Shown here piece after piece: positions 1-58,000 of a stretch of DNA of 64,000 nt. Origin of the DNA: a plasmid; sequence record NZ_CP082221.1, one strand, 5' to 3'. The notes below the pieces were generated by a model. It was given only the letters and a program-made list of their open reading frames with translations, had not been told where the DNA came from and made no database searches. A program made the position numbers and the translations under genes. How positions within the stretch are numbered: the stretch's first letter is position 1; every line of letters starts with the position of its first letter.

Positions 1-131
1 TAAAACTTCTAAATGAACTTTTAAACAATTATGATATTAGAAATATCGTAATTAGTGAAAAATAATCAAATATGAATGAATCGGATAGGCTGATTCTATT
101 AATATTGAGCTGATAAGCTTAAGGTGAGTTA

Positions 132-830
132 ATGAAATACTTTATAGCAAATTTATATTTTTATACCCGTAAAGAGCTTCTAGCAATTGCTGATGGAAAA
201 GATGAGCTTGTTGATTTTCTAGATAGAATAAAAGGTTCTGAGTTAGAAAGCGCGAAACTTACAAGTGCAGAACGTGCATTTTTGAATGTTTATCAATCTG
301 CTGTGTCAAATACTTTGGAGATGATGAACATTGATGTATCTACATCTAGCTGGATGATTGGCAATGGTTTTTACGTCCCTTCTATGGTTGAAGATTATAA
401 CAAAACAAATATTTCTATTTTAGAAGTAGTACTGTTTTGTAATATCACAGCATTAAAAACATTGATCAAAACTGATACTGCAATAATCGAAACAAGGTTT
501 GTTGAGTTTCTAATTAAGTACGTTGAAAAAATAGAATCGGTACATTGCTCAGATGATAAAATTTTTAAATTAGAACTAGGAAATAAGTATGAGTTTGAGT
601 TACATCAGGAAGGATACATTTTCGTAGAAAGAATTTCAGATGATGAAATTTTTAATGAACAATTTCTAGATTCAGAAATTTTGATAAGTTTGCTGTATGC
701 GAAAGAAAATGAGAATGAGATTATTCCAGTAGGTACTTTTCACAGTGTCTCAGGGGTATATGATGCACTTGATTTTAAAAGTGCTATTAAACCTCTTTTA
801 CCAGATATTGAGTTGCTGGCATCTTTCTAA
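132..830 (+). CDS. hypothetical leading-region protein (paralog of 1419-2177)
   Basis: ORF preceded by conserved hairpin-SD module (gagctgataagcttaaggtg, 7 nt, ATG); rho-independent terminator follows; shares motifs (W-M/I-x-NGF, GNK-x-EF-x-L-x-x-EGY-x-F) with 1419-2177. Confidence 0.6.
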   Translation: MKYFIANLYFYTRKELLAIADGKDELVDFLDRIKGSELESAKLTSAERAFLNVYQSAVSNTLEMMNIDVSTSSWMIGNGFYVPSMVEDYNKTNISILEVVLFCNITALKTLIKTDTAIIETRFVEFLIKYVEKIESVHCSDDKIFKLELGNKYEFELHQEGYIFVERISDDEIFNEQFLDSEILISLLYAKENENEIIPVGTFHSVSGVYDALDFKSAIKPLLPDIELLASF

Positions 831-832
831 AC

Positions 833-861
833 AAACGGGCAATAATGCCCGTTTTTTTTTT
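833..861 (+). terminator. rho-independent terminator
   Basis: aaacgggca-ataa-tgcccgttt stem followed by T10 run. Confidence 0.7.
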
Positions 862-968
862 AAATTAAATTTATATTAAAACAAAAATATGTTTTTGATG
901 TATAATAATTAAAGGAAGTTGGATAGGCTAACTTCAAAATTTGAGCTGAAAAGCTTATGGTGATTAAT

Positions 969-1352
969 ATGAAAGACAATAATCTAAAAGATTTATTCCA
1001 GTTCCTCTTAAACCATAAAAAACTCATCCAGTGTGGGATTACAGTTAGTCAGGGCAGCTACTCAATTACCGATCTTAATGAAGGTGTTTGTGTTTTGGTT
1101 GAACGAAATGTTCCATTCAAAGAATATTTATCTTTTCTAGAAATTATGGATAAATGGCCTGAGAAAAATAATGATCAAGGTTATACAGTTAGAATTGAAG
1201 GCGAGGATCCCTCAGAGATATACCTTGACTATTATGAGAATAACAAAAACATGTATGGCAATTGTTCATATGGCAAGAAACGATGGGATCTGATTTTATT
1301 TGTCTATCAAGAACTATTGGAAGCAAAGGAAGTCAGCTATTTAGAGGCTTGA
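969..1352 (+). CDS. hypothetical protein
   Basis: ORF; ATG 969 sits 6 nt after hairpin-SD module gagctgaaaagcttatggtg (track start 957 lies inside the module). Confidence 0.5.
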   Translation: MKDNNLKDLFQFLLNHKKLIQCGITVSQGSYSITDLNEGVCVLVERNVPFKEYLSFLEIMDKWPEKNNDQGYTVRIEGEDPSEIYLDYYENNKNMYGNCSYGKKRWDLILFVYQELLEAKEVSYLEA

Positions 1353-1418
1353 ATAAAGCAAAAGCAAAACCCTTTTTGAAACTTTTTAACATGAGCTGAA
1401 GAGCTTAAGGTGGCATAA

Positions 1419-2177
1419 ATGAACTTACAAGACTTAATTAGCGAAAATGAATTTTTTATCAGGAATCTTAATGTAGCTCAGTATGACAGGCTGGATGAGT
1501 TGACAAATTTAGATGAATATAAATCTGAATTTTTGGACAAAATTAGAAAACTCAATTTTGGCAGTAATGAAAACAGACTTTTGCAAATTTTAGCGCAAGA
1601 CGTTTTTGAGGAAGTTTACGAATACTGTGTATATCAAACCTTTGTAGAATGTTGCATGAATACAAAATGGATGACTGCAAATGGTTTTTTCTTTCCAGTT
1701 AATTTTGATCTAAACGAAAAATATTATGAAGATCCAGAAGCGGGATATGTGATAAATACATTCGATGTGATCATTAGTGCAAATCTCCATGCAATATACC
1801 AAGTAAGACATAATGGAAAGGTATATTTTGATGAACATCAAGAAGAGATTCTACAGTTTTGGGCTGACTACCTTATCGATATTTTACGTCGAAATAAGCG
1901 TCAGGCAGACAAGTTTATTATAGGTAATAAACTAGAATTTGATCTTCAAACTGAAGGGTATGTATTTCCGTTAGATATGGATGAAGATACATTTTATCAA
2001 ACATTTAACGAAGCAGAAATTAACTTCTATATCCTTCAGCAGAGTGGAAAAGACTACAAGATAGAGAAGTTTACTAACACGTACAATAACGGTGGAGCAG
2101 AAGAAAGTAAGATGGCTTTTGAATGTTTCTTAAAGTTCTATCCATACACAGACTTAACTTTAATAGCCAATTTTTAA
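1419..2177 (+). CDS. hypothetical leading-region protein (paralog of 132-830)
   Basis: ORF after gagctgaagagcttaaggtg module; conserved blocks shared with 132-830. Confidence 0.6.
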   Translation: MNLQDLISENEFFIRNLNVAQYDRLDELTNLDEYKSEFLDKIRKLNFGSNENRLLQILAQDVFEEVYEYCVYQTFVECCMNTKWMTANGFFFPVNFDLNEKYYEDPEAGYVINTFDVIISANLHAIYQVRHNGKVYFDEHQEEILQFWADYLIDILRRNKRQADKFIIGNKLEFDLQTEGYVFPLDMDEDTFYQTFNEAEINFYILQQSGKDYKIEKFTNTYNNGGAEESKMAFECFLKFYPYTDLTLIANF

Positions 2178-2228
2178 ACTTAAGGGGCTTCCCAACGGAG
2201 GCCCTATTTATTTAACAAAGGTGAAAGT

Positions 2229-2564
2229 ATGAAAGACCTAAATGTACATGAAAATATTGACGAAATTGGTGTCAGAGCTGCTCAATTATCTTCGTTTATA
2301 GTTGTATTAACAGGAGCAGCAATAATCTGTATAAGCGCAACTAAAACGAAAGCTGGATTAAGTGTCGTTATGAAAGATCTGTTCCCATCTAATATATATG
2401 TATTAGTTGCTTTAATGGTGATGAGCTTTATCTTATGTACTTTTTCATTATTGAAAAATAATAAAGATAAGCATGTTTCATTTATTAAAGAGTTCTTTCG
2501 GCACATTGGTATACAAAGTGGAGCAATAATTATCATATTTGGTTTACTTTCAAGAATTTTATAA
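2229..2564 (+). CDS. small membrane protein, hypothetical
   Basis: 111 aa, 3 predicted TM segments, SD aaaggtgaaag upstream. Confidence 0.45.
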   Translation: MKDLNVHENIDEIGVRAAQLSSFIVVLTGAAIICISATKTKAGLSVVMKDLFPSNIYVLVALMVMSFILCTFSLLKNNKDKHVSFIKEFFRHIGIQSGAIIIIFGLLSRIL

Positions 2565-2635
2565 AGATAAAATCTAAAAAAGGGTAACTATAACGTGATA
2601 AAAAATTTCAAATTTATAGCTGTAATTAGATCTAA

Positions 2636-2653
2636 TGGTGCGGATCCGCAACC
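2636..2653. repeat. GC-rich palindrome family member (GCGGATCCGC core)
   Basis: tggtgcggatccgcaacca; directly upstream of the SD of the toxin-like ORF. Confidence 0.8.
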
Positions 2654-2667
2654 ATGAGGATTTAGAT

Positions 2668-2799
2668 ATGAAAATTACAAACAGAAGAAGAAGTGAGATT
2701 AGAAAAAATTTATGGAAATGGTGTTCTATTTGCATAATTTTTTTAAGTTTAATCATCATTTTTTTTAGTTTGAAAGTGGATATTTTCGGAGTTATTTAA
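2668..2799 (+). CDS. 43-aa basic/hydrophobic peptide, type I toxin-like candidate
   Basis: MKITNRRRSEIRKNLWKWCSICIIFLSLIIIFFSLKVDIFGVI; SD gagga 9 nt upstream; stop overlaps next ATG (taATGg); antisense ORF 2574-2759 on opposite strand. Confidence 0.35.
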   Translation: MKITNRRRSEIRKNLWKWCSICIIFLSLIIIFFSLKVDIFGVI

Positions 2800-2867
2800 T
2801 GGATCTGATTATGATGTTTGTTGGGTTTTGTGCTTTTGTTTTATGGATTATTCATGGTGTAAAATAG
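2799..2867 (+). CDS. 22-aa hydrophobic peptide translationally coupled to 2668-2799
   Basis: MDLIMMFVGFCAFVLWIIHGVK; ATG overlaps preceding TAA. Confidence 0.25.
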   Translation: MDLIMMFVGFCAFVLWIIHGVK

Positions 2868-3062
2868 GGCGTTCCCTACGGGCCGGGCTAGTTGGCTTCG
2901 CTCGAACTCCAAGCGAAAAAGAGGATCCATCGAGTTTAAAATCTAGTTTCATGCAAAGCCTGAACCTGATTTTAATACTCGATTCAAATCCTCTTTTTTT
3001 ACGCTTGTATTTCGCCCCTTACGGGCAACATCCCTAACGCAGCATGATCGTGCTGTTTATCT

Positions 3063-3424
3063 TTAAAATTGAATCTAGGGGCAATTAGAGCGATTTAGAG
3101 GGCTATTTGTCGCAACCCTGCGGGATTGCTTTGTTATTACCGGATAAGGTCCAATGGGAGAAGTTTCACTTCTTCGGTCGTCTAGTCAAAATCACAGATT
3201 TTGACTGACTCGCTCGAAGTTTGAAACGGTAATCAAGGAGGGGGATGCTCGCAAATTTCATCAGTTCGCAACGTGGACACGTTGCTCTGCAAATGTATTT
3301 TATAATACGAAAAATTACACTAAATATATGTTTTTTCTTAATAAAAAGACATGAAAATGTAGTATAATTAAGGGGTGAAATCGGATAGGCTGGTTTCTAT
3401 ATATGAGCTGAAAAGCTTAAGGTG
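3063..3424 (+). repeat. structured ~360-bp repeat, copy 1 (candidate ssDNA promoter/ssi or structured leader)
   Basis: near-identical to 59834-60193 and partially to 62240-62442; multiple perfect hairpins (gcaaccctgcgggattgc; agtcaaaatc-acag-gattttgact; gcaacgtg-ga-cacgttgc; long-range ttaccg/cggtaa); ends in tagtataat -10-like box and hairpin-SD module. Confidence 0.7.
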
Positions 3425-3428
3425 TACT

Positions 3429-3743
3429 ATGAAAATTTATACAAAAATTGCCCTTAATTACTTCAGAAATTTAATTTCTGCATGTGGAAAAGAACATGGG
3501 ATATTTTTCTCAGAATCACCACAAAATCCAAAACATTTAGTAGCCAATGACGCTATTTATTTCATTACTCAAATTGATGACTCAATTGTATTTATTGATT
3601 GTAAATATGGTCCAGTTTCAACTTATCGGATAGATGGAATTTTAGATTTTACATCTAATTCTATAGAGGATGCCGCTCAAATTGCTACTAATAATTTTCG
3701 TCTAATCTGTGAAAATCATTACACTATCTTGAATTGTGAATAA
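3429..3743 (+). CDS. hypothetical protein
   Basis: ATG 3429 directly after module gagctgaaaagcttaaggtgtact; track start 3375 lies inside the hairpin module. Confidence 0.5.
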   Translation: MKIYTKIALNYFRNLISACGKEHGIFFSESPQNPKHLVANDAIYFITQIDDSIVFIDCKYGPVSTYRIDGILDFTSNSIEDAAQIATNNFRLICENHYTILNCE

Positions 3744-3778
3744 TAAAAATTTGAGCTGTAAAGCTTATGGAGATCAAA

Positions 3779-4276
3779 ATGAAAAAATGGTTTAGTTCTG
3801 ATGTAAACAACGTTGATGATTTAAAGAATGAATACCGAAAACTTTGCTTTAAACATCATCCAGACATGGGCGGCTCGACTGAAGATATGCAAGCCATAAA
3901 TTCAGAATATGAGCAGCTTTTAAAAGTTCTAATTAATACAAAGGCAGACAGTAACTATTCAGAGAAATCTACTTTTAAAAACCGAGATGAAGAAATTGAT
4001 GCAGAAATTCGTTTGAGAGAAGTTCTAGAAAAGTTAGAAATCTTGGAAGGGTTAGAGATTGAGAGAATAGGACTATGGTTATATGTTTCAGGCAATACAA
4101 AAGCGCATAAGGAAGCATTAAAAGAGGCTGGTTTAAAATGGGCACATGCTAGAAAACTTTGGATATATGTTGGTACAGAATGCAGAGGACGAGGAAACAA
4201 AGATATGGACGAGCTTAGAGCAAAATACGGAAATGAAAAGGTAAAAACTAGAAGCAAAATTAAGAAAATTGCTTAA
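3779..4276 (+). CDS. J-domain (DnaJ-like) protein
   Basis: YRKLCFKHHPDMGG: canonical J-domain helix II-HPD motif; module gagctgtaaagcttatggag upstream; terminator downstream. Confidence 0.6.
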   Translation: MKKWFSSDVNNVDDLKNEYRKLCFKHHPDMGGSTEDMQAINSEYEQLLKVLINTKADSNYSEKSTFKNRDEEIDAEIRLREVLEKLEILEGLEIERIGLWLYVSGNTKAHKEALKEAGLKWAHARKLWIYVGTECRGRGNKDMDELRAKYGNEKVKTRSKIKKIA

Positions 4277-4287
4277 CTATTTTCTAC

Positions 4288-4318
4288 AAAAAAAAGCCGA
4301 CATAATCGGCTTTTTTTT
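4288..4318. terminator. bidirectional rho-independent terminator
   Basis: aaaaaaaagccgacataatcggctttttttt. Confidence 0.7.
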
Positions 4319-4421
4319 ACTTAAAATGTATAATTTCAACAACATAAATGATATAATTTATTTGTGAAATCGGATAGGCTGATTTCGAATTTTTGAGCTG
4401 AAAAGCTTATGGAGTTTTAAG

Positions 4422-4706
4422 ATGTATGCAATAGTTGATTCAAATATGAATGTCATTGATGCTTCGATTTGTAAAATTAAATTAGAATATAAATTGGCTG
4501 ATAAATTGTTTTGGATAGCTCACAATTTTGGTCGTCAAGCTGAAGGAGTTAAGCAAGATGAATTTGAAATAGATGAACTAAGTGATCCAGAAGTATGCAA
4601 TGCTATTCACATGGCTTATCAAAATGCTTTTGACTATAAGAAGAATGAAATTAGTGATAGTTATAAAATCGTAAAATGGGATAGTAAACAGGCAATTTGG
4701 ATTTAA
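4422..4706 (+). CDS. hypothetical protein
   Basis: preceded by tataat box, gaaatcggataggctgatttc hairpin, gagctgaaaagcttatggag module. Confidence 0.5.
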   Translation: MYAIVDSNMNVIDASICKIKLEYKLADKLFWIAHNFGRQAEGVKQDEFEIDELSDPEVCNAIHMAYQNAFDYKKNEISDSYKIVKWDSKQAIWI

Positions 4707-4710
4707 TTTT

Positions 4711-4753
4711 GAAACAAAAAAAAAGCCGTGAATAACGGCTTTTTTTTGTTTCA
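4711..4753. terminator. bidirectional rho-independent terminator
   Basis: gaaacaaaaaaaaagccgtgaataacggctttttttttgtttc extended palindrome. Confidence 0.7.
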
Positions 4754-4851
4754 AAGTGATTGAATAAATTAAGGAAAATGTTATAATTTAATCAAGAAAT
4801 CGGATAGGCTGATTTCTATTTTTTGAGCTGAAAAGCTTATGGAGTTTACAA

Positions 4852-5184
4852 ATGATTAAATCAAATAATATGATCGACATTAAAAATCTTATCAATGAAT
4901 TTCGCAATGAAACTTTATTGGAAAAAGAGAAAGTCTTTATTGATGGTAAAGACAAAAAAAGCGTTATTACTGGTTCTAAAATTTTAACTCTAGCACTTAC
5001 TAAAGAGAATATTATTTATACTATTTATCATATAGAAGTATGCCGTGATGAGGAAGGCAAAACTGTCAAACGTTATAAAATCCATCAAAGAAAATCTTTA
5101 GGTTTTTCAATTCCACTTAGCTTTTTGGTAAAGCGTGAATTTGAAAAAGCTGCACCAGAAACTTTAATAAATGCTTTAATTTGA
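4852..5184 (+). CDS. hypothetical protein
   Basis: same promoter/hairpin/SD module upstream. Confidence 0.5.
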   Translation: MIKSNNMIDIKNLINEFRNETLLEKEKVFIDGKDKKSVITGSKILTLALTKENIIYTIYHIEVCRDEEGKTVKRYKIHQRKSLGFSIPLSFLVKREFEKAAPETLINALI

Positions 5185-5199
5185 TTAGGAGTAGATTCA

Positions 5200-5394
5200 A
5201 TGATTGCTCATCGAATTAATGATTCAACTGAAGAACTAAAACTTGAAGTTTTAAAAAGTGCAGCAGGTTTTTACATTGGAACTTTTGATTATGATTCTGA
5301 TAATTATGGTCCTGTTAGCCGTGTATCGGAATACTTCAAGACCAGTGAGGAAGCAGAATATGCATTAAAGAATAATTGCTGGACACTACGTTAA
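5200..5394 (+). CDS. hypothetical small protein
   Basis: 64 aa, SD aggag upstream, terminator 5393-5427 downstream. Confidence 0.4.
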   Translation: MIAHRINDSTEELKLEVLKSAAGFYIGTFDYDSDNYGPVSRVSEYFKTSEEAEYALKNNCWTLR

Positions 5395-5427
5395 AAAAAA
5401 GCTGGCTTTAAGCCAGCTTTTTTTTAT
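5393..5427. terminator. bidirectional rho-independent terminator
   Basis: aaaaaaaagctggctttaagccagctttttttt. Confidence 0.7.
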
Positions 5428-5753
5428 CCTAATAAAATCTTTTTAATATCGTCCATATGTTTTTTCCAAACTTTTGGAGATATTTCAAGAAGCTTATTTC
5501 TATCTAAAAGTTTAAACAAATCATCTTTTACTTTTAATTTTGCTTGTTCAACTTCTTGAGCAATTTGTTCATCAAGTAGTTCTAATTCCCTTTTCATTTG
5601 CTCTTTTCGTTGAGCTAATTTTTTGCCTTTCGGCGATAAATAATCTGCAATATTACCTGATTCATCTTTTGCTTTTGTTTCATTTGAATTTGTATTGGCT
5701 GCATCATTTTCAGCCTTAACAGATTCGTCATTTGTTTGAGCAACATTATTCAT
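5424..5753 (-). CDS. hypothetical charged coiled-coil protein adjacent to oriT
   Basis: 109 aa, K/E-rich predicted coiled coil; location between leading region and oriT. Confidence 0.4.
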   Translation of the reverse strand: MNNVAQTNDESVKAENDAANTNSNETKAKDESGNIADYLSPKGKKLAQRKEQMKRELELLDEQIAQEVEQAKLKVKDDLFKLLDRNKLLEISPKVWKKHMDDIKKILLG

Positions 5754-5759
5754 ATTTAC

Positions 5760-6250
5760 ACCATCTCAAATTTTAACTAGCAAACAAAACTTCTTTGTTT
5801 GGGGACAACTACATACTAAATATTTTCACCAATCTAGCAACAGAATTTTTTTAAAAAACTTAAGATTGATTAAATGATGCGGGACACCCCGCTCATTTTT
5901 TTTCTCACACACCACGCACCTAACGGTGCTTTTAGCTCAAGCCTTTATGGTGCAAGGTTTTGAGTGGATAAAACACTAGGTAAATATGGTTAACTTTTAT
6001 GATCTATAAACTGTTATATGTTATTAATATATAAAAAGAAATAGGTGTTAACTTTCATTTTATTTAAAGTTAACCAATAAACCCATAAAAACAATGTAAG
6101 AACATGTTTTTAAATAATATATATGGAGTAACCGACTTTATTTTATAAAAACAGAAAGTTTTTGATTTATGTTATTGAAATATATGTAAAAACTATAGTT
6201 ACACAACTATTTTGAACATAAAAATATAAATATTTCCAAAAGAACTAAAA
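5760..6250. promoter_or_regulatory. candidate oriT region
   Basis: AT-rich non-coding block immediately upstream of RHH-traD-traI; hairpin gcacc-taac-ggtgc (5916-5929) resembling R388 IR2 followed on the minus strand by GTGGTGTG; inverted repeat gttaacttt...aaagttaac at about 6045-6073. Confidence 0.5.
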
Positions 6251-6330
6251 TGAAATTTAAAAAAATGCATCAAAGTGCTACAATTTTTTCATCTTTTGTT
6301 TATCCACAGCTCTTGAGGAGTGTCAAACTC

Positions 6331-6801
6331 ATGACCCAAAAGAAAGTTTCAATTGGAGGTAAGGTTAGCCCTGAAATTAAGAAATACTATGATGATATGG
6401 CTAATAGATTAGGAATCTCTACAAGTCAGTTACTTGAAAAAATCTTAATTGAAAACCTTACATTATCTAAAGTCCAAATCTTAATTGATGACTTTGACAA
6501 CAAAGTCAATTATATGGTCGAGCTTATCAATCAGAGTTTTACGAACCAATCTCATTTTATTGATGAAAAATTTGATATCTCAAATTCTAGTTTAGCTAAG
6601 TTGATTTATGAAAACGGTTTGAATAAACAAACTGAAGAGTTCATTGCTACTTTAACTTTCTTGGAAGCTGCTAAATATAAAAATCTGCCATTAGTTAAAG
6701 ACTTTAATAAACGCGAAACCACTGGTGAAGCTCTCTTTTTACAAGCATCAAAAGAAGCTAGAGAGTCAGTTGCTAAACGTCGTAATCAATCAGAGGCTTA
6801 A
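6331..6801 (+). CDS. ribbon-helix-helix relaxosome accessory protein (TrwA/TraY-like)
   Basis: N-terminus KKVSIGGKVSPEIKKYYDDMANRLGISTSQLLEKIL fits an RHH fold; SD gaggag 10 nt before ATG 6331; position oriT-RHH-traD-traI. Confidence 0.5.
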   Translation: MTQKKVSIGGKVSPEIKKYYDDMANRLGISTSQLLEKILIENLTLSKVQILIDDFDNKVNYMVELINQSFTNQSHFIDEKFDISNSSLAKLIYENGLNKQTEEFIATLTFLEAAKYKNLPLVKDFNKRETTGEALFLQASKEARESVAKRRNQSEA

Positions 6802-6805
6802 TTGA

Positions 6806-8965
6806 ATGAAAGCAAAGAATAACTCAAAAGCAATCGAATTTACGAGAGGTTCTGAAATATGGATTCATCAATTTCGAATGTTTATTTCAAGCATGATGAA
6901 TGTCATAGTTTTTGGCCTGATGATTACGATTGGCATTGTATGTGCATTTCTATACATTAAATTAAAGGATGTTCATTTTCTTGCTTTAAGTGTGCAATAC
7001 GATATTTGGTTAAAGTCAGTATTTAATAATCCAGATGCGAGAGTAGCATTGAAGCTAAATGGTGTTGTACGTGATTACACTCTTGATCAAGCTCAGCACA
7101 TTATTAATCCCTATTTTAACCAATTAAAGTTTTATGTTTTTCGAGCATTTATTTTAGGTATTCTTTTAAGCTCATTTCTAGTCGGTGGTCTTATTTATTA
7201 CTGGTTTACTTATGGTAAGGAAGTAATGTCTGATGAACAAATTCGTGGTTCAGAACTAGTTTCTAATGACGCATTAATTTATAAAATCCAAAGTACGAAA
7301 GGATTCAGTCCATATAAAATTTCTAACATACCTATGGTAAAAAATACAGAAGGTACGAATGTTGGTATTTTTGGTGCTCCTGGTTCTGGTAAGTCTCAAA
7401 TTTTTAGAGATCATTTATCTCAGGTTAGAAGCAATAAAAGAAAAGCTATCGTTTATGATCCTTCAGGAGAATTCACTTCAGAATTTTATCGACCAGGTAT
7501 AGATATTATTCTAAATCCATTTGATGAACGTATGCCGTATTGGTCACCATTTTTTGAAATTCGTCATGATGAGCATTTCGATAGTATTGCTAATGCTTTT
7601 GTTCCAGTTGAGGGTAAAGATCCTTATTTTGGCGAAGCTGGTAGAACAGTATTAGCTGAAGTCATGCGTGAATTACATGCTAATGGTATACACTCAAATA
7701 AGACTCTCCATGACACAATTGCACATTTTACTATTGAAGAAATATCGTCTGTGCTTGAGGGAACGGCTGCTTCAAAGCATGTTGATAAAAAAGCTGAAAA
7801 GACGGCACTGGCTGTTCTTACAACAGTACAAAATAAATTAAGAGCATTTCGCTATTTACCAGATTCCGGTACACAGTTTTCTATACGTGATTGGGTAAGT
7901 CGGCCTGAAGAAGACTCATGGATTTTCCTTTCGCTTAGAGAAGAACAGAAAACTACTATTGAACCACTTATTACGTTGTGGTTTTCAATATTCATTAAAG
8001 CCGTAATGAACTTAGAACCAATACATCGTGAACTATTATGGATGTATTGTGATGAGTTCCCAACTCTACCAAAAATGGATGATTTACCTTTATCTCTTAC
8101 AAATACTCGTAAATTCGGTTTATGTCATTTTTTAGGACTACAAGATATTCCTCAACTTGAAGAAAAGTACGGAGAAAAAATTGCTCGTTCAATAATTTCA
8201 GCTTTACAAACGAAAGTGTTCTATCGAGTTAATGAAAATGAAACTGCGAAAAGAATGTCTGAAATTCTTGGACAGATGGAAGTTGCTGAAAAAAATATGT
8301 CTAGAAGTATGGGGGTTAATGATTCAAGAGACGGTGATAGTTTTATTACTCAAAGGAGAGAACGCTTTATTGTTTTACCATCTGAAATTATGAAGTTGCC
8401 AGATCTAACAGGATACTTAAGAGTTCCTGGTGATTATCCAGTTACGAAGATTACTCAGAAATATCATCCTCACTTAAAAAATGTTCCAGCATTTATAGAA
8501 CGAGAAAATATGGGTTTCATTTCTGCGTTTGCGGTTGCTGAAGCTTTAGAATCCCAATCGAATTCTGATGGAAAAGAGCCATTAGTAGAACAACAAAATG
8601 AAGAAGGCAATTTCTTTGGGAATTCTACTGAGCCACTTGTTGGAAATAGTAGTTTCTTTGGGAAATCTAATACAACCTCTGAAATTATTTATGAAAATTC
8701 ACCTTTAGATTTATTTCATTCTCAAACAGAAGATAGTGATTTATCACTTAATGAAAAAAACGGTATTCAACCAGATGAAATAATCCCGGACGAAGATGAA
8801 AAGCCTAAAGTTGTTAATAATGACAGACTACATACTTTTGCCAGCTATCTTGCCGCAACCGATGAATCAAGTGCTCAGAAAAATAATGACGTTACTCCTG
8901 ACACTAATTCAAGTAATGATTCTAATGAATCTAGTTTTAAAGACTTGTTCAATAACAATGATTAG
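6806..8965 (+). CDS. traD: type IV coupling protein TraD/TrwB
   Basis: N-terminal TM helices, Walker A GAPGSGKS, FtsK-like core, acidic disordered C-tail with FFG repeats. Confidence 0.9.
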   Translation: MKAKNNSKAIEFTRGSEIWIHQFRMFISSMMNVIVFGLMITIGIVCAFLYIKLKDVHFLALSVQYDIWLKSVFNNPDARVALKLNGVVRDYTLDQAQHIINPYFNQLKFYVFRAFILGILLSSFLVGGLIYYWFTYGKEVMSDEQIRGSELVSNDALIYKIQSTKGFSPYKISNIPMVKNTEGTNVGIFGAPGSGKSQIFRDHLSQVRSNKRKAIVYDPSGEFTSEFYRPGIDIILNPFDERMPYWSPFFEIRHDEHFDSIANAFVPVEGKDPYFGEAGRTVLAEVMRELHANGIHSNKTLHDTIAHFTIEEISSVLEGTAASKHVDKKAEKTALAVLTTVQNKLRAFRYLPDSGTQFSIRDWVSRPEEDSWIFLSLREEQKTTIEPLITLWFSIFIKAVMNLEPIHRELLWMYCDEFPTLPKMDDLPLSLTNTRKFGLCHFLGLQDIPQLEEKYGEKIARSIISALQTKVFYRVNENETAKRMSEILGQMEVAEKNMSRSMGVNDSRDGDSFITQRRERFIVLPSEIMKLPDLTGYLRVPGDYPVTKITQKYHPHLKNVPAFIERENMGFISAFAVAEALESQSNSDGKEPLVEQQNEEGNFFGNSTEPLVGNSSFFGKSNTTSEIIYENSPLDLFHSQTEDSDLSLNEKNGIQPDEIIPDEDEKPKVVNNDRLHTFASYLAATDESSAQKNNDVTPDTNSSNDSNESSFKDLFNNND

Positions 8966-8976
8966 GTAGGTAGATA

Positions 8977-11900
8977 ATGCTAAGTGTTAACAATGTAGTT
9001 GAATCTGGAAAGGCTTTGTCTTACTACCAATTAGATAATTATTATACTAATGAGCAACAATCATTGGATCAAACTGAATGGTATGGTCGTGGTGCTCAAG
9101 TATTAGGTATTAATGGTGAACAAATTGAGGCAAATACTTTTAAAGACTTGCTAGAAGGTAGAGTAGAAGATCAACAGTTGGGGCGAGTTAGGAAAGATGA
9201 AAATGGTCAAAGTTATATTGATCATAGAGCTGGTATAGATTTAACGTTTAGTGCTCCAAAATCTGTTTCGATAATGGCAGAGGTTTTTGAAAATCAAGAT
9301 GTGCTACAAGCACATCTTGATGCTGTTAAAGATACTATTTCCGCTATTGAAGATCATTACACGCAAACTAGAATCAGTGTTGATGGCACAATTCAAAAAT
9401 CAGAGAGTGATAATTTAGTTGTTGCTCTTTTTAATCACAATACTAGTAGAGCATTGGATCCGCAAACTCATACACATGCAGTTGTTATGAACATGACTTT
9501 AAATGATAAAGATTCATGGACGGCATTAAGTAACGAAGTAATTTATGATAATCAGGCAACCATAGGTTCGATATATAATTCTAATCTCGCTCAAAATTTA
9601 AGAGCTATAGGTCTTGATGTAGAGGTAAAAGATAATCAGGGCAATTTTGAAATTGCCGGCTTTACTCCAGAAATGATACAAGAGTTTTCTCAGCGAAGAA
9701 CTCAGATTATTGAAAGTTTAAAAAGTAGAGGAATTGATATTGAAGATGCACCTGCTAGTTTGAGAGAACAAGCAGCTTTAAAAACACGGGAAAGGAAACA
9801 GGCATTTAATGAGGCTGAATTACGTCAAGTTTGGAAGGAACGTGCAAGTGAACTTGGCATTACACAAAGTTTTGTAGATAAGCTAGAAGATAAAATTAAA
9901 ACGAATCAGATGAATGCGGATCCGCAACCTTCAGAAAAAAACCAAAAAGACATATGGAAAACCGGATCCTCAAAAAATGATCCGAATATATCATTTGAAG
10001 GGAAAACGGAAGTTTCTAGCGATAAATCTAATAACGCTGATAAAGAAGCACCAGATAAACGAATTGACAACTCTGAAACGCAAAATCCGAGCGATAGCGC
10101 CATATCAAATGAAAAAGCTAGTCAAGTATCAGGAAAATCCCAAAAAGAGCCAGAAACGCAAAATATGGGCCAAGAAGCGCATATTCAAGATGAAGTTAGA
10201 TTGGGTAAGAAACAAACTGAACCTAAAGCGAGTAACAATTCAAAAGACCAGACTGTACCTAGAGAACGACCTTATCAAAGAAAGAATCGTGAATCTCAAC
10301 AAGTACTCATAAGCCAAAAAACAAAAGAAGCCGTTTACTACGCTATAGGGCATCACACCGAAAGAGAAATGATGATACCTGAAACAAAGATACTAAATAC
10401 GGCTATGAAATTTGACATACAAGAAGTAACTCATGAACAAGTACGAGCTGAGTTAAATAGACTAGAAAAAGAAAAAATCATCGTCCGGGTAGATGGGAAG
10501 TTAACAACTCAGCGTTTGGCACATAGCGAAGTTTGGTCGTTACAACATATACAAAATGAACAAAAAAGCGTGAGTCCAATAGTGGATGAATCTCAAGTTA
10601 AAACAAGACTCGATCAAGAGGAACAGTTGAGAGGGAGGAAGTTTACACCCGGACAAAGAGCAAGTCTTGAAACAATATTTAGTTCTGAAAGTAGATATAT
10701 AGGCGTAGACGGTTTAGCTGGTACGGGTAAAACTACAATGCTGCATACTTTGAATAAAGTAGCCTCAGAAAACGGTTTTATTGTTAAAGGTATGGCCGCC
10801 ACTGGCGTAGCTGCTAAAAACTTAGAATTGGAAACTGGTATACCCTCAAAAACAATGGCCATGTTTCAGATTAAAGAAAATGAGCTTCAGAAAGAAATTG
10901 AAAAGAATGGGGGAGTAAACCGTAAAAATGAAATCTGGATAGTTGATGAATCTTCATTTGTAAGCCAGACAAACTTCAAAGACATTTTGACTTTGGCTAA
11001 GCAAGCTAATAGTCGTGTTGTTTTTTTAGGGGATAAATTGCAGCTTCAGTCAATTAGTGCAGGAAAACCATTTGAACTTGTACAAAATAGAGGTGTGCTA
11101 AAAACTTCACAAATGCATGACATTATCCGTCAAAAAAACCAGGAACTTAAAGACGTGGTTTCTGTTGTCGTTGCAAAAAACAAAGAAGGTAAAATTGATT
11201 TAAGTAACAACGATAAAGCTTTTGATTTACTTGATAAACAGCAAAGGATTCATGAAGTAGTTGTAGCTGCAAAGGGTACACAACCAGCTCTACATGAGCA
11301 GCATGACTTATTTCAGGAAATTCATGAAGTACATCAAAAATTAGTTGGTGATTATATGAGGCTTAATAAGGAATCAAGAGATAATAGCCTTATCATTACT
11401 CCCTTTAACTCAGATAGAGTAATGCTGAACTCACTTGTAAGAAGCGAAATGAAAAAACTAAATGAATTAGATCATAATGATCATAATTTTGAGATCTTAG
11501 TAAATACCAATTTCACTGAAGCGGAGCGTAAACATATTAATAATTATGAGCCTAATATGACGATACGTTTTGGGAAATCATTTACAGATAAAGACACAGG
11601 AATCAAAATTGAAAAAGGTGACTATCTAAAAGTAATGATGAAAGACAAAGAAGGTAAATTGGTATTAATTGATAAGGATAAAAATAAAATTAAATGGAAC
11701 CCTAAAAAAGGAAGTGTAGAAGTATATAAATCAGAACAAAGAAAGATAGCTAAGGGAGATGTAATAAGAATTACCCGGACAAAAGATGATGAACAGATCA
11801 AGAATGGTGAAAGATATAAAATCAAGGATATTCATGAAGATAAAGTAATAGTAGAAGGCCAGGATGGGAAAGAGAAAAGCCTATCAAGAAGTGGGTTTAA

Positions 11901-12252
11901 ACATTTTGATTACGGCTATAGTAGTACTGTTTATTCCTCTCAGGGCTTAACACAGGGTAATGTATTTTTGTTACTAAATAGCCAAAAATTAGCAAATGAT
12001 CTGAAAAGTGATAAGGCTGCCACCAAAGTTTTAGGTAATACATTTGGAACAAGATCATTTTATGTTGCTGTAACGAGGGAAGAGCATAATTTGCAGATTT
12101 ACACTGATAATAAACAAATGACACGAGAAGCAATTACGTTTAAACAAGATAAAACAAGTTATTTGGATACAGTTAAAGAAGTTGGTCAAAAAGTACCAGA
12201 ACATATCATCGAAAATGAAAAAATTGGTGTAACTAATGAGCTAGAAAGATAG
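8977..12252 (+). CDS. traI: MOBF relaxase-helicase (TrwC/TraI family)
   Basis: N-terminal relaxase with HTHAVVMN histidine triad; ~150-aa low-complexity linker; C-terminal helicase with Walker A GLAGTGKTT. Confidence 0.9.
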   Translation: MLSVNNVVESGKALSYYQLDNYYTNEQQSLDQTEWYGRGAQVLGINGEQIEANTFKDLLEGRVEDQQLGRVRKDENGQSYIDHRAGIDLTFSAPKSVSIMAEVFENQDVLQAHLDAVKDTISAIEDHYTQTRISVDGTIQKSESDNLVVALFNHNTSRALDPQTHTHAVVMNMTLNDKDSWTALSNEVIYDNQATIGSIYNSNLAQNLRAIGLDVEVKDNQGNFEIAGFTPEMIQEFSQRRTQIIESLKSRGIDIEDAPASLREQAALKTRERKQAFNEAELRQVWKERASELGITQSFVDKLEDKIKTNQMNADPQPSEKNQKDIWKTGSSKNDPNISFEGKTEVSSDKSNNADKEAPDKRIDNSETQNPSDSAISNEKASQVSGKSQKEPETQNMGQEAHIQDEVRLGKKQTEPKASNNSKDQTVPRERPYQRKNRESQQVLISQKTKEAVYYAIGHHTEREMMIPETKILNTAMKFDIQEVTHEQVRAELNRLEKEKIIVRVDGKLTTQRLAHSEVWSLQHIQNEQKSVSPIVDESQVKTRLDQEEQLRGRKFTPGQRASLETIFSSESRYIGVDGLAGTGKTTMLHTLNKVASENGFIVKGMAATGVAAKNLELETGIPSKTMAMFQIKENELQKEIEKNGGVNRKNEIWIVDESSFVSQTNFKDILTLAKQANSRVVFLGDKLQLQSISAGKPFELVQNRGVLKTSQMHDIIRQKNQELKDVVSVVVAKNKEGKIDLSNNDKAFDLLDKQQRIHEVVVAAKGTQPALHEQHDLFQEIHEVHQKLVGDYMRLNKESRDNSLIITPFNSDRVMLNSLVRSEMKKLNELDHNDHNFEILVNTNFTEAERKHINNYEPNMTIRFGKSFTDKDTGIKIEKGDYLKVMMKDKEGKLVLIDKDKNKIKWNPKKGSVEVYKSEQRKIAKGDVIRITRTKDDEQIKNGERYKIKDIHEDKVIVEGQDGKEKSLSRSGFKHFDYGYSSTVYSSQGLTQGNVFLLLNSQKLANDLKSDKAATKVLGNTFGTRSFYVAVTREEHNLQIYTDNKQMTREAITFKQDKTSYLDTVKEVGQKVPEHIIENEKIGVTNELER
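9913..9928. repeat. palindrome family member inside traI
   Basis: atgcggatccgcaacc; encodes NADPQ in the traI linker. Confidence 0.8.
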
Positions 12253-33124: not shown

Positions 33125-34552
33125 ATGAAAATTAAAGCATTAATTATAGGTGTTCTATTTGGTATTACGGTTTCTGCAAATGCCGATCCAGCCTCAATGC
33201 AAGAAGTTTTTGACCAAATAAATGCGCGTGGAAATGTTACTCAGCCAACCGCAATCCAGGGCCAGACTATGAATTATATGACAGGTGGGAGTTTGTTTAT
33301 GCGAACTCCCAACACCACATATAATCTAGCTGCTATTACCCCTCCTTCAGCTAATGCTGGTTGTGGCGGCATTGACTTGTATATGGGTGGCTTCAGCTTT
33401 GTAAATAAAGAACAATTTGTAGCCATGCTAAAAAATATCGGCTCAAATGCATTGGGATATGGCTTTAAATTAGCTTTACAAAATTTATGTCCGACTTGCG
33501 ATAACGTTCTGCAAGCTCTTCAATCTGCCTCTCAACAAATTAATAGAATGAACATTGATTCGTGTGAGGCAGCGAAAGGGATTGTTAATGCAGCAACTTC
33601 TACTGTTGCATTGCGTGGACGCGAACAATCTTCAATGAATTTTGGAACAATAAAAAATATCTTCAGTGATATGACAGAAGCATGGACCAAGAATAAGGGA
33701 AATTCACAACAAACAAATCAAACTTTAGATAATTTATCTAATCAAGATCCAAATATGAAAAATCATATACCGGATGGTAACTTGACTTGGAAAGCATTAT
33801 CAAAAATTTCAGCATTACCTACAGACCAAAAATACTTAATCATGGCAATGGTGGGTACAGTAGTTATAACTGAAGATCCAACCAATGGAACGCCTAAAAT
33901 AGTCGCTTATCCGCGAAGAATCGATAATATTTCTACACTCATTGGTACTAGTGCAAGTTCACAAGCACAATTTCCAGTTTGGCGTTGTGTCGATGGTACA
34001 CGTGAAGATGAATGTACATCTCTTGTTCAAGACAACTTAACAACTAATGAAACATTCTATTCGCTAGTAGATGAAAAGATGAGATTACTAGCGGATGCTA
34101 TTTCGCAACGTCGCCCAATTACTGATGCTGGTGGAATCATTCAATTCATCAATTTAACAGATATTCCGATCTATAAAATCATAGCACTGAATACTCGATA
34201 TGGTGGTGATAGTACTGCTGCAATGATGGCCTTAGACCAGTACAAAGAACTGATAGCAGCAAAATATGCTCTTGCGTACTTTGAAATAACTTCAAAGATG
34301 GTTGAAGCTGCTTTAGGCAATATTATTGCTGGAACGGCTGATGCTGTAACTGCTCAAGAAGTTACTAAGATTAGAGAAACCTTAGATAAAACAAGAGCAG
34401 ACTTGAACCAAAGCACGCAAGTTGCTTACGCACGTTCCAATGTCTCATTTAATATCGCCCAGGAAGTTCAGCATATGGAGCGAACTTTACATTCAAATTT
34501 AGCTCCAGCTTTAAGACAGTCAATTGTCTTCGCTAACACATTAGATAAATAA
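33125..34552 (+). CDS. traH: TraH
   Basis: 475 aa, signal peptide, synteny. Confidence 0.8.
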   Translation: MKIKALIIGVLFGITVSANADPASMQEVFDQINARGNVTQPTAIQGQTMNYMTGGSLFMRTPNTTYNLAAITPPSANAGCGGIDLYMGGFSFVNKEQFVAMLKNIGSNALGYGFKLALQNLCPTCDNVLQALQSASQQINRMNIDSCEAAKGIVNAATSTVALRGREQSSMNFGTIKNIFSDMTEAWTKNKGNSQQTNQTLDNLSNQDPNMKNHIPDGNLTWKALSKISALPTDQKYLIMAMVGTVVITEDPTNGTPKIVAYPRRIDNISTLIGTSASSQAQFPVWRCVDGTREDECTSLVQDNLTTNETFYSLVDEKMRLLADAISQRRPITDAGGIIQFINLTDIPIYKIIALNTRYGGDSTAAMMALDQYKELIAAKYALAYFEITSKMVEAALGNIIAGTADAVTAQEVTKIRETLDKTRADLNQSTQVAYARSNVSFNIAQEVQHMERTLHSNLAPALRQSIVFANTLDK

Positions 34553-53195: not shown

Positions 53196-53213
53196 CTCTG
53201 TACACGACAAATT

Positions 53214-53660
53214 TCACAGAACCCTTATCCTATCAGGATTCTGCCTTCTTAAAATTGCCAAAATTTCCTTAAACTCTTCTTTTTTCCCAAAACCAATTAA
53301 ACGCTGAATCGCCATTTGAACATAGTCTAAACCATAGCGAAATAAACTCATTGAGAGTCGTCCATGCTTCTTTATTTTTATCGCTTTTTTTTGATCATGT
53401 TGCCATTCACCCGTTAAGTAACACCAACAGAAGCTTATAGCTAACACCGCAATCAATTTTTTCACTCGTCTAGGGTCTGTCAAGCGCGTATTTCCAAGAT
53501 TAAACCCGCGTCCTTTGAGACAACTGAATAAGGTTTCAATTTCCCAGCGTAATGCATAATCCTGAATAGCATTGGCATTAAACTGAGGAGAAACGACGAG
53601 TAAAAGCTCTCCATTTTCTAACTGTAGTGCACTTATATATAGTTTCACCCGACCAACCAA
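53214..53660 (-). CDS. ISAba1 transposase OrfB portion
   Basis: differs from copy 2 by one residue (GFNLGNT vs GFNLENT). Confidence 0.8.
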   Translation of the reverse strand: MVGRVKLYISALQLENGELLLVVSPQFNANAIQDYALRWEIETLFSCLKGRGFNLGNTRLTDPRRVKKLIAVLAISFCWCYLTGEWQHDQKKAIKIKKHGRLSMSLFRYGLDYVQMAIQRLIGFGKKEEFKEILAILRRQNPDRIRVL

Positions 53661-53734
53661 AATCCGTCGTTTACGACATTCAATTTGACCAACTTTAAGA
53701 TGGCGAAATAAATCACTAATTTTATGATTCTTTC

Positions 53735-54304
53735 CTAAATGATTGGTGACAATGAAGTTTTTTTAACACGAATGCAGAAGTTGATGTCTTGTTCAATTAA
53801 CCATGTAAACCACTGCTCACCGATAAACTCTCTGTCTGCGAACACATTCACAATACGGTCTTTACCAAAAATGGCTATAAAGCGTTGAATCAAAGCAATG
53901 CGCTCTTTCGTATCTGAATTTCCACGTTTATTAAGCAATGTCCAAAGGATAGGTATCGCTATTCCACGATAAACGATTGCGAGCATCAGGATATTAATAT
54001 TTCGTTTTCCCCATTTCCAATTGGTTCTATCTAAAGTCAGTTGCACTTGGTCGAATGAAAACATATTGAAAATCAACTGAGAAATTTGACGATAATCAAA
54101 ATACTGACCTGCAAAGAAGCGCTGCATACGTCGATAAAATGATTGTGGTAAGCACTTGATGGGCAAGGCTTTAGATGCAGAAGAAAGATTACATGTTTGC
54201 TTTAAAATAATCACAAGCATGATGAGCGCAAAGCACTTTAAATGTGACTTGTTCCATTTTAGAGATTTGTTTAAGATAAGATATAACTCATTGAGATGTG
54301 TCAT
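53735..54304 (-). CDS. ISAba1 transposase OrfA
   Basis: 189 aa, identical to OrfA of copy 2. Confidence 0.85.
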   Translation of the reverse strand: MTHLNELYLILNKSLKWNKSHLKCFALIMLVIILKQTCNLSSASKALPIKCLPQSFYRRMQRFFAGQYFDYRQISQLIFNMFSFDQVQLTLDRTNWKWGKRNINILMLAIVYRGIAIPILWTLLNKRGNSDTKERIALIQRFIAIFGKDRIVNVFADREFIGEQWFTWLIEQDINFCIRVKKTSLSPII

Positions 54305-54349
54305 AGTATTCGTCGTTAGAAAACAATTATTATGACATTATTTCAATGA

Positions 54350-55231
<882 letters not shown>

Positions 55232-55335
55232 GAGCTTGACAGAAACTCTAATTTTATAAAAAGCCCATTTGAGATAAATGGGCCTTTTATAATCTGACTA
55301 ATAATGAAACCTGTTAATTTTTCTAGTTTAAAATT

Positions 55336-55977
55336 TTACAGTGCTTTTAGTTGTTGTGATCCAATCCAGTGTTTAGAGAACTGATAGGCGGCACGTCCTG
55401 ACCGTTGACCACGTGCCTGACACCAGCGTAGGGCTTCAGCATGGGCTTCGTCATTCATTGGCATATCTGTTTTAGCAAGATAGTGTTCTACAATGGTTAA
55501 ATACAGGTTTTGATCCATTGGATAGAATGAAAGCCACATTCCAAAACGATCCGAGAGTGAAATTTTTTCCTCAATGGCTTCTTGTGGATGCAACTCGGTA
55601 TATTGCGGTACATCTACACGAGTCACTGGCGTGTTCTCATGCATAAATTCTGGTAACAGATGTCGACGGTTGCTGGTTGCATAAATAATAAAATTACTTG
55701 TACCTGACTGTAATGAGCCATCAAGTACACTTTTTAAGCTGCGATAGTTTTCATCTTCAGCATTAAAGGCCAGATCATCGCAGTAGACAATGAACTTTTC
55801 CGGACGCTTCTGGATGAGCTTCTGGATTTCAGGAAGATCGGACAGATCATCACGTTCAATTTCAATTAAACGTAATCCTTGATCTTTATACTCGGTTAAA
55901 AGGGCACGGACAATTGAAGATTTTCCTGTGCCGCGTGAACCAGTAAGGAGAACATCATTGGCTGGCAGATTCTGCAA
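55336..55977 (-). CDS. AAA-type ATPase (Tn2006)
   Basis: Walker A GSRGTGKS; Tn2006 context. Confidence 0.75.
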   Translation of the reverse strand: MQNLPANDVLLTGSRGTGKSSIVRALLTEYKDQGLRLIEIERDDLSDLPEIQKLIQKRPEKFIVYCDDLAFNAEDENYRSLKSVLDGSLQSGTSNFIIYATSNRRHLLPEFMHENTPVTRVDVPQYTELHPQEAIEEKISLSDRFGMWLSFYPMDQNLYLTIVEHYLAKTDMPMNDEAHAEALRWCQARGQRSGRAAYQFSKHWIGSQQLKAL

Positions 55978-56450
55978 AAATTGTCGTGTATTTTGACTAA
56001 TGTATTATTAAATACATGATCTTCAAGCTCTTCAAAAGCAAATCTTAGTGTGGCATGTGTACATACTAAAATTTGATCTGTACCTTCCATAAAGTGTTTA
56101 AAGGCTTTTACTTTGCTTTTATCGCCACCAGCAGTACATAAGTTGTTTTCAGGTTTGATATCCCAATCTGCAAAAAAGCCACTTTCGCTTAGTTTTGTGC
56201 TAGCAAATGAACCGCCAATTGAGCGTTCAGGTACAGCTACAATAACTTTGCTTAACCCTTGGTTGTGTATCTTGTCTAAACCCAAAAACATTAATGCACG
56301 AGATTTACCTGATGCAGGAGGGGCTTTTAAGAGCAAATACTGACTATTACGAGATTCGAAGGCGCGAGCTTGCATAGCTCGCATCCCCATATTATTAACT
56401 GAGGTGCTTTCTCCAGTTTGTTGATAATTTACTTCTACTAAATTTTTCAT
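55896..56450 (-). CDS. DEAD/DEAH helicase N-terminal fragment (Tn2006)
   Basis: Walker A APPASGKS; truncated. Confidence 0.65.
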   Translation of the reverse strand: MKNLVEVNYQQTGESTSVNNMGMRAMQARAFESRNSQYLLLKAPPASGKSRALMFLGLDKIHNQGLSKVIVAVPERSIGGSFASTKLSESGFFADWDIKPENNLCTAGGDKSKVKAFKHFMEGTDQILVCTHATLRFAFEELEDHVFNNTLVKIHDNFCRICQPMMFSLLVHAAQENLQLSVPF

Positions 56451-56457
56451 TTTTATC

Positions 56458-56850
56458 TCAATTTAACATTGTTTCGTAGTAGTGGAATAATCGCTCTAGA
56501 CGCTCTTCATCTGTCTTAAAATCACTTGATTTATATAGTTTTTCCACTAACGAATCATTCTCTTTATGAGCTTGTTTTAAGTCAAAAGGCATTTTTTCAG
56601 GATCATAAAGTTGAGCCAAACTTAAATGTGAATAGGATTCACGTACAGCTAGTATTTTAAAAGCAGATTCATTTAACTTAAATATCGATGCTTTCATGAG
56701 CTTTGGCACAGGAAAAGTGTTATAGCAAATTGCTGAAGTGTAACGAATACGTTCCTCTAACTTTCCTGCAATAGTTTTAACCCAAACCATGTGCATTTTC
56801 GATTGAAGCAATGCAAATACCTCTGTACACGACAAAAATAGATAACTCAT
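56458..56850 (-). pseudogene. yeeA-like methyltransferase fragment (Tn2006)
   Basis: 130-aa C-terminal fragment abutting the ISAba1 IR. Confidence 0.5.
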
Positions 56851-56891
56851 TGAAATAATGTCATAATAATTGTTTTCTAACGACGAATACT

Positions 56892-57461: not shown

Positions 57462-57535
57462 GAAAGAATCATAAAATTAGTGATTTATTTCGCCATCTTA
57501 AAGTTGGTCAAATTGAATGTCGTAAACGACGGATT

Positions 57536-57982: not shown

Positions 57983-58000
57983 AATTTGTCGTGTACAGAG

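Follow-up and report, generated by a model that had tools for sequence, protein, structure and literature searches.

The intergenic region that precedes the transfer genes of this plasmid contains a short GC-rich hairpin, which raises the question of whether conjugative transfer starts there and, if so, which strand is nicked and which side of the plasmid enters the recipient first. A preliminary description of the sequence had proposed that the hairpin is the IR2 of an R388-type origin of transfer (oriT). The present analysis of the whole 64,000-nt stretch of NZ_CP082221.1 (hereafter the window) leads to a closely similar reading: positions 5879-5960 very probably constitute the oriT core of a RepAci6 plasmid, of MOBF class, and the hairpin together with its adjoining bases is almost certainly, on comparison with related plasmids, the nicking site from which conjugative transfer is initiated. 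The proposal of an oriT is thus supported, by the gene topology, by the homology of the nic region to those of R388 and F, by the invariance of the core among relatives, and by compensatory changes in its stems.

Plasmid identity and gene neighbourhood

As judged from its sequence, the window belongs to a RepAci6 (pACICU2-like) conjugative plasmid of Acinetobacter baumannii. In PLSDB, 203 records are at least 90% identical to positions 5400-6400 of the window, 202 of these 203 at a level of at least 95%, and all 203 are typed as conjugative; the related records that were inspected in detail are typed as MOBF with an F-type mating-pair system. In A. baumannii, RepAci6 plasmids are among the main carriers of blaOXA-23 and aphA6. 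A Tn2006-like composite transposon, with two copies of ISAba1 around blaOXA-23, occupies positions 53196-58000 and is 99.96% identical to the copy in the small plasmid pS32-1, which makes the window part of a carbapenem-resistance plasmid. For another RepAci6 plasmid, pS32-2 (NZ_MG954379.1), MOB-suite gives the type 'MOBF,MOBP', a hint that some members of the family carry a second relaxase-like gene.

The hairpin lies inside a 578-bp intergenic region (5754-6330) that is bounded on the left by a minus-strand ORF of 109 aa and followed on the right, on the plus strand, by an ORF of 156 aa and the genes for a type IV coupling protein (T4CP) and a relaxase:

5424..5753, minus strand: 109-aa ORF that opens the predicted leading region and points away from the predicted oriT
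6256..6284, plus strand: promoter-like site TTTAAA-17-TACAAT preceded by TG, which would serve the accessory/T4CP/relaxase operon (consensus match only)
6331..6801, plus strand: candidate relaxosome accessory protein, 156 aa, positional equivalent of TrwA in an R388-like gene order
6806..8965, plus strand: type IV coupling protein of TrwB/TraD type (PF10412, E = 5.7e-114)
8977..12252, plus strand: MOBF relaxase-helicase of TrwC type, 1091 aa (PF08751, E = 1.5e-81)

The relaxase domain matches the structure of TrwC (1OMH, E = 2.9e-50), and the catalytic residues of the protein are intact, in that it retains the tyrosine pairs Y16/Y17 and Y22/Y23, D88, and the histidine triad H154/H165/H167. Its gene adjoins that of the coupling protein and is located about 3 kb from the hairpin, after the accessory gene and the coupling-protein gene. 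The accessory gene itself fills the space between the predicted oriT and the T4CP gene at 6806. The mechanically called ORF begins with an ATG at 6250, and the promoter-like site at 6256-6284 would sit within this longer ORF; the RefSeq start is at 6331, with GAGGAG 10 nt upstream, and the ATG at 6331, not that at 6250, is most likely the true start. An Rfam scan of positions 1-7000 gave no match in 5754-6331, and elsewhere gave sub-threshold matches at terminator hairpins.

The predicted nic and its counterparts in R388 and F

The hairpin GCACC-TAAC-GGTGC is found at 5916-5929, where the preliminary description had placed it, and is the sole occurrence of GCACC-N4-GGTGC in the 64-kb window; a broader definition (5-bp stems with at least four G/C pairs and a loop of 3-6 nt) yields 11 hairpins in the window, including those at 5879 and 5916. 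The stretch 5879-5965 has a G+C content of 49% and is set inside an intergenic region of 27% G+C. Read 5' to 3' on the minus strand, the core comprises a conserved block with an imperfect IR1, then IR2, the sequence GTGGTGTGT/GA (here and below a slash marks the nic), an A/T tract, and IR3. It is located about 425 nt upstream of the accessory/T4CP/relaxase operon, on the opposite strand:

5935..5960, minus strand: conserved block 5' of IR2, an imperfect IR1 (CCTT...AAGG) followed by AAGGCTTGAG, recognized from distant blastn matches and alignments
5916..5929, minus strand: IR2-type hairpin GCACC-GTTA-GGTGC, the predicted relaxase recognition hairpin, directly 5' of the nic
5905..5917, minus strand: invariant 13-mer GCGTGGTGTGTGA, which contains the predicted nic
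5893..5904, no strand assigned: A/T-rich homopolymer spacer from the nic region to IR3, A/T-rich in all relatives
5879..5892, minus strand: GCGGG-GTGT-CCCGC, the GC-rich hairpin IR3, which follows the predicted nic at a distance of about 14 nt on its 3' side

The minus strand from 5929 down to 5895 reads GCACCGTTAGGTGCGTGGTGTGTGAGAAAAAAAAT. According to computed folding, IR2 forms a hairpin as single-stranded DNA, and past this hairpin the minus strand continues as GTGGTGTGT/GAG.

The resemblance to the IR2 of R388 (reference NC_028464.1) that had been pointed out is borne out and extends from the hairpin to the nic. The arms GCACC and GGTGC are identical in the window and in the R388 IR2 core, the loop has the form G..A in both, and alignment of R388 GCACCGAAAGGTGCGTATTGTCT/ATAG with the minus strand of the window, GCACCGTTAGGTGCGTGGTGTGT/GAGA, gives identity at 18 of the 23 positions between IR2 and nic. 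The distance from the end of the hairpin to the nic is 9 nt in R388 and likewise 9 nt to the homology-predicted nic in the window, with GT..TGT.T conserved. The R388-derived pattern GCACCGNNAGGTGCGTNNTGTNT has a single match in the window, at 5907-5929 on the minus strand, and matches in none of 100 dinucleotide-preserving shuffles; a search with the exact R388 23-mer, allowing up to three mismatches, finds no match in the window because the window differs from R388 at five positions. The topology is also shared. In R388, the nicked strand carries GCGCACCGAAAGGTGCGTATTGTCT/ATAG and is the complement of the trwA-trwB-trwC coding strand, with IR2 adjoining trwA and the nic distal to it, and the window has an identical topology if its minus strand is the one nicked; the gene order oriT-accessory-T4CP-relaxase is common to both. 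There are also differences: the nic is about 425 nt from the accessory gene in the window and about 156 nt from it in R388, the mating-pair system is of type F in the window and of type T in R388, and folding of the R388 sequence reveals no GC-rich hairpin resembling IR3 directly 3' of the nic.

Past the hairpin, the single-stranded nic region of the window, GTGGTGTGT, is nearer to that of F (reference NC_002483.1) than to GTATTGTCT of R388. The F nic region, TTTGCGTGGGGTGT/GGTGC, is identical to the window at 11 of 14 positions (F GCGTGGGGTGT/GG against GCGTGGTGTGT/GA in the window), and the 13-mer of the window aligns with GTGGGGTGT/GG of F and with GTATTGTCT/AT of R388. The 5' hairpin of F, GCAAAAAC-TT-GTTTTTGC, has arms unrelated to those of the window IR2 and ends 9 nt 5' of the nic, as in the window and R388, and a second inverted repeat shortly 3' of the F nic is analogous to IR3. 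The F-type mating-pair system is common to the window and F, and in F, as in a minus-strand model of the window, it is the complement of the transfer-gene coding strand that is nicked. Unlike the window, F has its relaxase gene at the opposite end of the tra operon, some 30 kb away from oriT, and its accessory proteins are TraY and TraM; the relaxase of the window, with 1091 aa and a TrwC-like architecture, is shorter than F TraI and nearer to TrwC. Taken base by base, the element resembles R388 in its hairpin arms and F in its single-stranded nic region.

Because the alignments with R388 and with F both place it there, nic is predicted to lie between T5907 and G5906 of the minus strand, a position that derives entirely from homology. 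This point falls within the interval 5905-5909 given in the preliminary description, but the junction written there, GTGGTGTG/TGAG, is one base off the homology-based GTGGTGTGT/GAG. A pattern scan detected no second R388- or F-like nic motif within the 64-kb window.

By analogy with TrwC of R388 and TraI of F, the N-terminal domain of the relaxase would bind the proximal arm of IR2 or the hairpin, plus the nine single-stranded bases beyond it. Its first catalytic tyrosine, Y16, would cleave the minus strand at T5907/G5906, with the relaxase remaining on the 5' end; the helicase domain would unwind in the 5' to 3' direction while the coupling protein passes the strand to the F-type secretion system, and the second tyrosine would rejoin the regenerated IR2-nic junction. 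The two GC hairpins around the A/T-rich nic region probably help to expose the nic as single-stranded DNA.

Conservation of the core and other readings of it

Alignment with the oriT regions of related plasmids, which had been named as a check, shows that the core is invariant among diverged relatives. When 5840-5990 is used in a sensitive blastn search, only about 5905-5960 is retained in diverged MOBF plasmids and in small plasmids without a relaxase. Four diverged types of MOBF plasmid have the match at an equivalent site flanked by the same genes (pAS62-4/pAS51-3, p2BJAB0868/pABAY10001_1C, and pBDT201-3), and the arrangement of a site upstream of the operon on the complementary strand recurs in four diverged Acinetobacter plasmid types and in Burkholderia. 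In 15 distinct diverged sequences from Acinetobacter, the 13-mer GCGTGGTGTGTGA does not vary at all, and its flanks diverge.

The stems, in turn, covary. Stem position 4 of IR2 has undergone a compensatory change from C:G to T:A in 10 of 15 relatives (GCACC/GGTGC to GCATC/GATGC) and to A:T in Burkholderia. IR3, for which the single-stranded fold has z = -6.2, shows compensatory changes at three stem pairs around an invariant TGT at the loop centre, and its stems in relatives (CCGGC/GCCGG, CTCGCC/GGCGAG, GCCGGTA/TACCGGC, and GTCGGTA/TACCGAC) are all complementary. Altogether, four stem pairs carry compensatory changes, 91% of cells are paired compared with 28-42% when the partners are slid, and the observed covariation score was reached by none of 500 shuffles. 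One row of the covariation alignment, that of the contig CAZNMO010000173.1, is misaligned in one arm, the effect of which is only to lower these numbers. The small relaxase-less plasmids have a degenerate distal IR2 arm (TCATC or TTATC), which means that a perfect hairpin is not strictly conserved.

Outside the genus, the closest relaxase is that of Burkholderia glumae p79s2p, at 47.5% identity. The core of p79s2p reads CTTGC-gga-GCAAG GCTTTTAG ... GCAAC-gga-GTTGC GTGGTGTGT/GA ... GTGGGGC-ctcg-GCCCCAC, the first of these hairpins being at the position of IR1, and it occupies the same strand, with about 440 nt between it and the accessory gene downstream. The 13-mer GCGTGGTGTGTGA is identical there, the hairpin arms differ, and the layout of three hairpins is the same. 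A scan of species-representative genomes with the core motif returned 3 loci only, so that the exact core has a narrow distribution. An exact copy of the Acinetobacter-type IR2/nic/IR3 core also occurs at 2073-2097 of the 10-kb contig CAZNMO010000173.1, assigned to a metagenome-assembled genome of an 'uncultured Clostridiaceae', and this is likely a mis-binned plasmid contig.

Several other readings of the same bases have to be considered. The hairpins at 5879-5892 and 5916-5929, both of which precede a T-run on the plus strand, might be tandem intrinsic terminators and not transfer signals, and a consensus scan does indeed find both to be terminator-like on that strand, two being found against 0.3 expected from shuffles. 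However, no plus-strand gene ends just upstream, since the last one ends at 5394 and has its own hairpin and T-run at about 5400-5427, and 5424-5753 is occupied by an ORF on the minus strand. The run past the first hairpin is A in pAS62-4, p2BJAB0868, the CAZNMO010000173.1 contig, and others, and terminators would leave unexplained both the invariant 13-mer between the hairpins and the match to the R388 and F nic regions. This very improbable reading was rejected because the T-run is not conserved and there is no co-oriented gene upstream.

The palindromic hairpin exists on both strands, which would allow an oriT nicked on the plus strand, with rightward transfer and the tra genes entering first. 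We give this only the slimmest chance, because it is the minus-strand side of the hairpin that is invariant among relatives, whereas the nine bases past the hairpin on the plus strand, TTTTAGCTC, are unlike any MOBF nic region and vary among relatives, and because R388 and F are both nicked on the complement of the coding strand. It is extremely unlikely, too, that the core is an operator or partition-type protein-binding site for divergent promoters, with the real oriT elsewhere on the plasmid. The intergenic region does part divergent genes and does hold repeats, and the function of the accessory protein is unconfirmed; yet the same core is present in hundreds of small plasmids without the flanking genes, the window offers no other candidate nic motif, and MOBF plasmids with the same gene order have their oriT upstream of the accessory gene.

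IR3 was noted at 15 loci beside the window and is kept even in relaxase-less plasmids and in the Burkholderia plasmid. The spacer run next to it is T in some relatives and A in others, which favours a role in melting or bending and disfavours a terminator tail. At the position of IR1, 10 of 15 relatives have a 4-6 bp hairpin and the other 5 have no stem of at least 4 bp, and the IR1 of the window is a 4-bp stem only; it is treated here as a conserved block and putative hairpin. A tentative and rather doubtful extension of these observations is that this MOBF clade has an oriT built as a unit of three hairpins (IR1; IR2 with nic and A/T tract; IR3) in which IR3 is a functional element. The IR3 side of the nic is the first to be transferred under the minus-strand model. 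If such a unit exists, IR3 would have a structure-specific role that needs no sequence-specific duplex-binding protein, for example in nic melting in supercoiled DNA, in helicase loading, or in action on the incoming strand in the recipient.

Candidate accessory sites, small plasmids with the core, and predicted transfer polarity

Between the core and the accessory gene there are repeats that are candidates for binding of the accessory protein, as had been suggested:

5989-5997 (plus strand), 6047-6055 (plus strand), and 6066-6074 (minus strand): three copies of GTTAACTTT, the last two forming an inverted repeat with a 10-nt spacer

The inverted repeat gttaacttt-N10-aaagttaac is therefore present with the N10 spacing that had been claimed. 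Three of the four copies of GTTAACTTT in the window fall within 86 bp, when 1.37 copies are expected in the whole window. Other repeats are found at the same place in relatives, namely TGTACA-N8-TGTACA in pAS62-4 (4107-4283 of the locus compared) and three copies of GTGCTACCA plus an inverted repeat in pBDT201-3 (4090-4296), and the accessory proteins of these two plasmids are only 21-32% identical to that of the window. Such plasmid-specific repeats would look like the pattern expected of sites that co-evolve with an accessory protein. The 156-aa protein probably binds the GTTAACTTT repeats, bending the DNA and aiding its melting.

The preliminary description had also taken this protein to be of the ribbon-helix-helix (RHH) type. 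It has no match in Pfam, in NCBIfam, or among PDB sequences, BLASTP reveals no significant similarity to TrwA, and its homologues number seven, all from Acinetobacter. For the N-terminus, SIGGKVSPEIKKYYDDMANRLGISTSQLLEKILIE, hhalign gives a low-confidence alignment (probability 22%) to residues 6-40 of TrwA, in the RHH region of that protein. The single-sequence AlphaFold model is poor (pLDDT 43.7) and unfit for a fold search; its helices, at residues 14-26 and then from 31 onward, would suit the two-helix portion of an RHH domain. For positional orthologues, as for TrwA itself, the only NikA-like matches are sub-threshold. An RHH fold is therefore plausible but unproven.

The core is also present in small plasmids that lack a relaxase, for example p1ATCC19606 and a family of 8.7-kb plasmids. 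In PLSDB, 476 Acinetobacter plasmids carry the small-plasmid core, and MOB-suite types 345 of the 476 as 'non-mobilizable' (e.g., NZ_CP027529.1 and NZ_MG954378.1); these 345 are probably mobilisable in trans. In pS32-1 the arrangement of IR2, nic, and IR3 is the same, TCATC-GTTA-GATGC GTGGTGTGTGA ... CCGGC-ATGT-GCCGG, and, Tn2006 aside, a 32-bp match at 5897-5928 is all that this plasmid has in common with the window. According to Blackwell and Hall (2019; Plasmid 103:36), as described in PMC7315799, pS32-1, which is without mobilisation genes, is mobilised by RepAci6 plasmids and has a 32-bp match to the R388 oriT in sequence and organisation; a 73-bp aligned region is also mentioned in PMC7315799. 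pS32-1 and the Tn2006-bearing RepAci6 plasmids share 4.8 kb of Tn2006, so that with certain combinations of donor plasmids part of the mobilisation could be due to cointegrates. The window shares this 4.8 kb of Tn2006 homology with pS32-1, a small plasmid reportedly mobilised by RepAci6 plasmids.

The oriT region described here is already known, as the same intergenic region was proposed for this plasmid family in 2019. More recently, positions 33,345-33,924 of pS32-2 were listed as a candidate region under the name oriT_Pse5 (bioRxiv 10.1101/2024.01.30.577996). That segment coincides exactly with the interval separating the same two genes as in the window; its identity to 5753-6331 is 99.5%, and the two cores do not differ. 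On this comparison of sequences, the window oriT is the same element as the published RepAci6 oriT and oriT_Pse5, and nothing substantive differs. No transfer of oriT_Pse5 was seen in a heterologous RP4-based assay (bioRxiv 10.1101/2024.01.30.577996); because the RP4-based system is not the cognate one, this null result is weak evidence. Biochemical mapping of the nic of the RepAci6 oriT was not found in the accessible literature. What is added here is modest, namely a base-level prediction of the nic (5907/5906, minus strand) and the covariation of IR2 and IR3, and further the Burkholderia counterpart with the same layout and the plasmid-specific candidate sites for accessory proteins. Knowledge of the RepAci6 oriT would explain the transfer of hundreds of small plasmids classed as 'non-mobilizable', a point that is already in the literature.

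The polarity of transfer may be deduced by analogy. It had been argued that the minus strand is the T-strand, that transfer proceeds leftward, and that the tra genes enter last, and the argument holds by the topology of R388 and F and by gene orientation. Positions 5906 down to 1 would then enter the recipient first and the transfer genes last, including the genes for the F-type mating-pair system, which are located downstream of the relaxase gene on the plus strand. On the leading side, the following region is predicted:

132..5394, plus strand: predicted leading region of co-oriented ORFs (orientation; ArdA-type genes in a relative)

Every sizeable ORF in 132-5394 is on the plus strand, which makes the incoming minus T-strand their template, and the one exception in the stretch from 5400 to 1 together with the oriT flank is the minus-strand ORF at 5424-5753. 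In a near-identical plasmid with fuller annotation, about 19 kb upstream are co-oriented except for one toxin-antitoxin pair, and pBDT201-3 has ArdA and another antirestriction gene in equivalent position and orientation. A minus-strand ORF is present at the position of 5424-5753 in all relatives, and the 109-aa product of that in the window has no family match. The first leading gene is transcribed away from oriT in F as in the window, and the remaining leading genes of the window run toward oriT, as does one further F gene that was retrieved. Apart from a J-domain, the leading-region ORFs gave no family matches, so that the assignment of the region rests on orientation and on the ArdA-type genes in a relative.

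Two minor features of this side of the plasmid may be mentioned. The ORF at 3767-4276 encodes a J-domain (DnaJ-like) protein (PF00226, E = 4e-5, below the Pfam cut-off; 'J domain-containing' in RefSeq), which is unusual cargo for an early-entering region. In addition, the hairpin agctggc-tttaa-gccagct at 5400-5427, flanked by a T-run and, on its other side, by an A/T-rich stretch, is located between the convergent ORF ends at 5394 (plus strand) and 5424 (minus strand) and is probably a bidirectional terminator.
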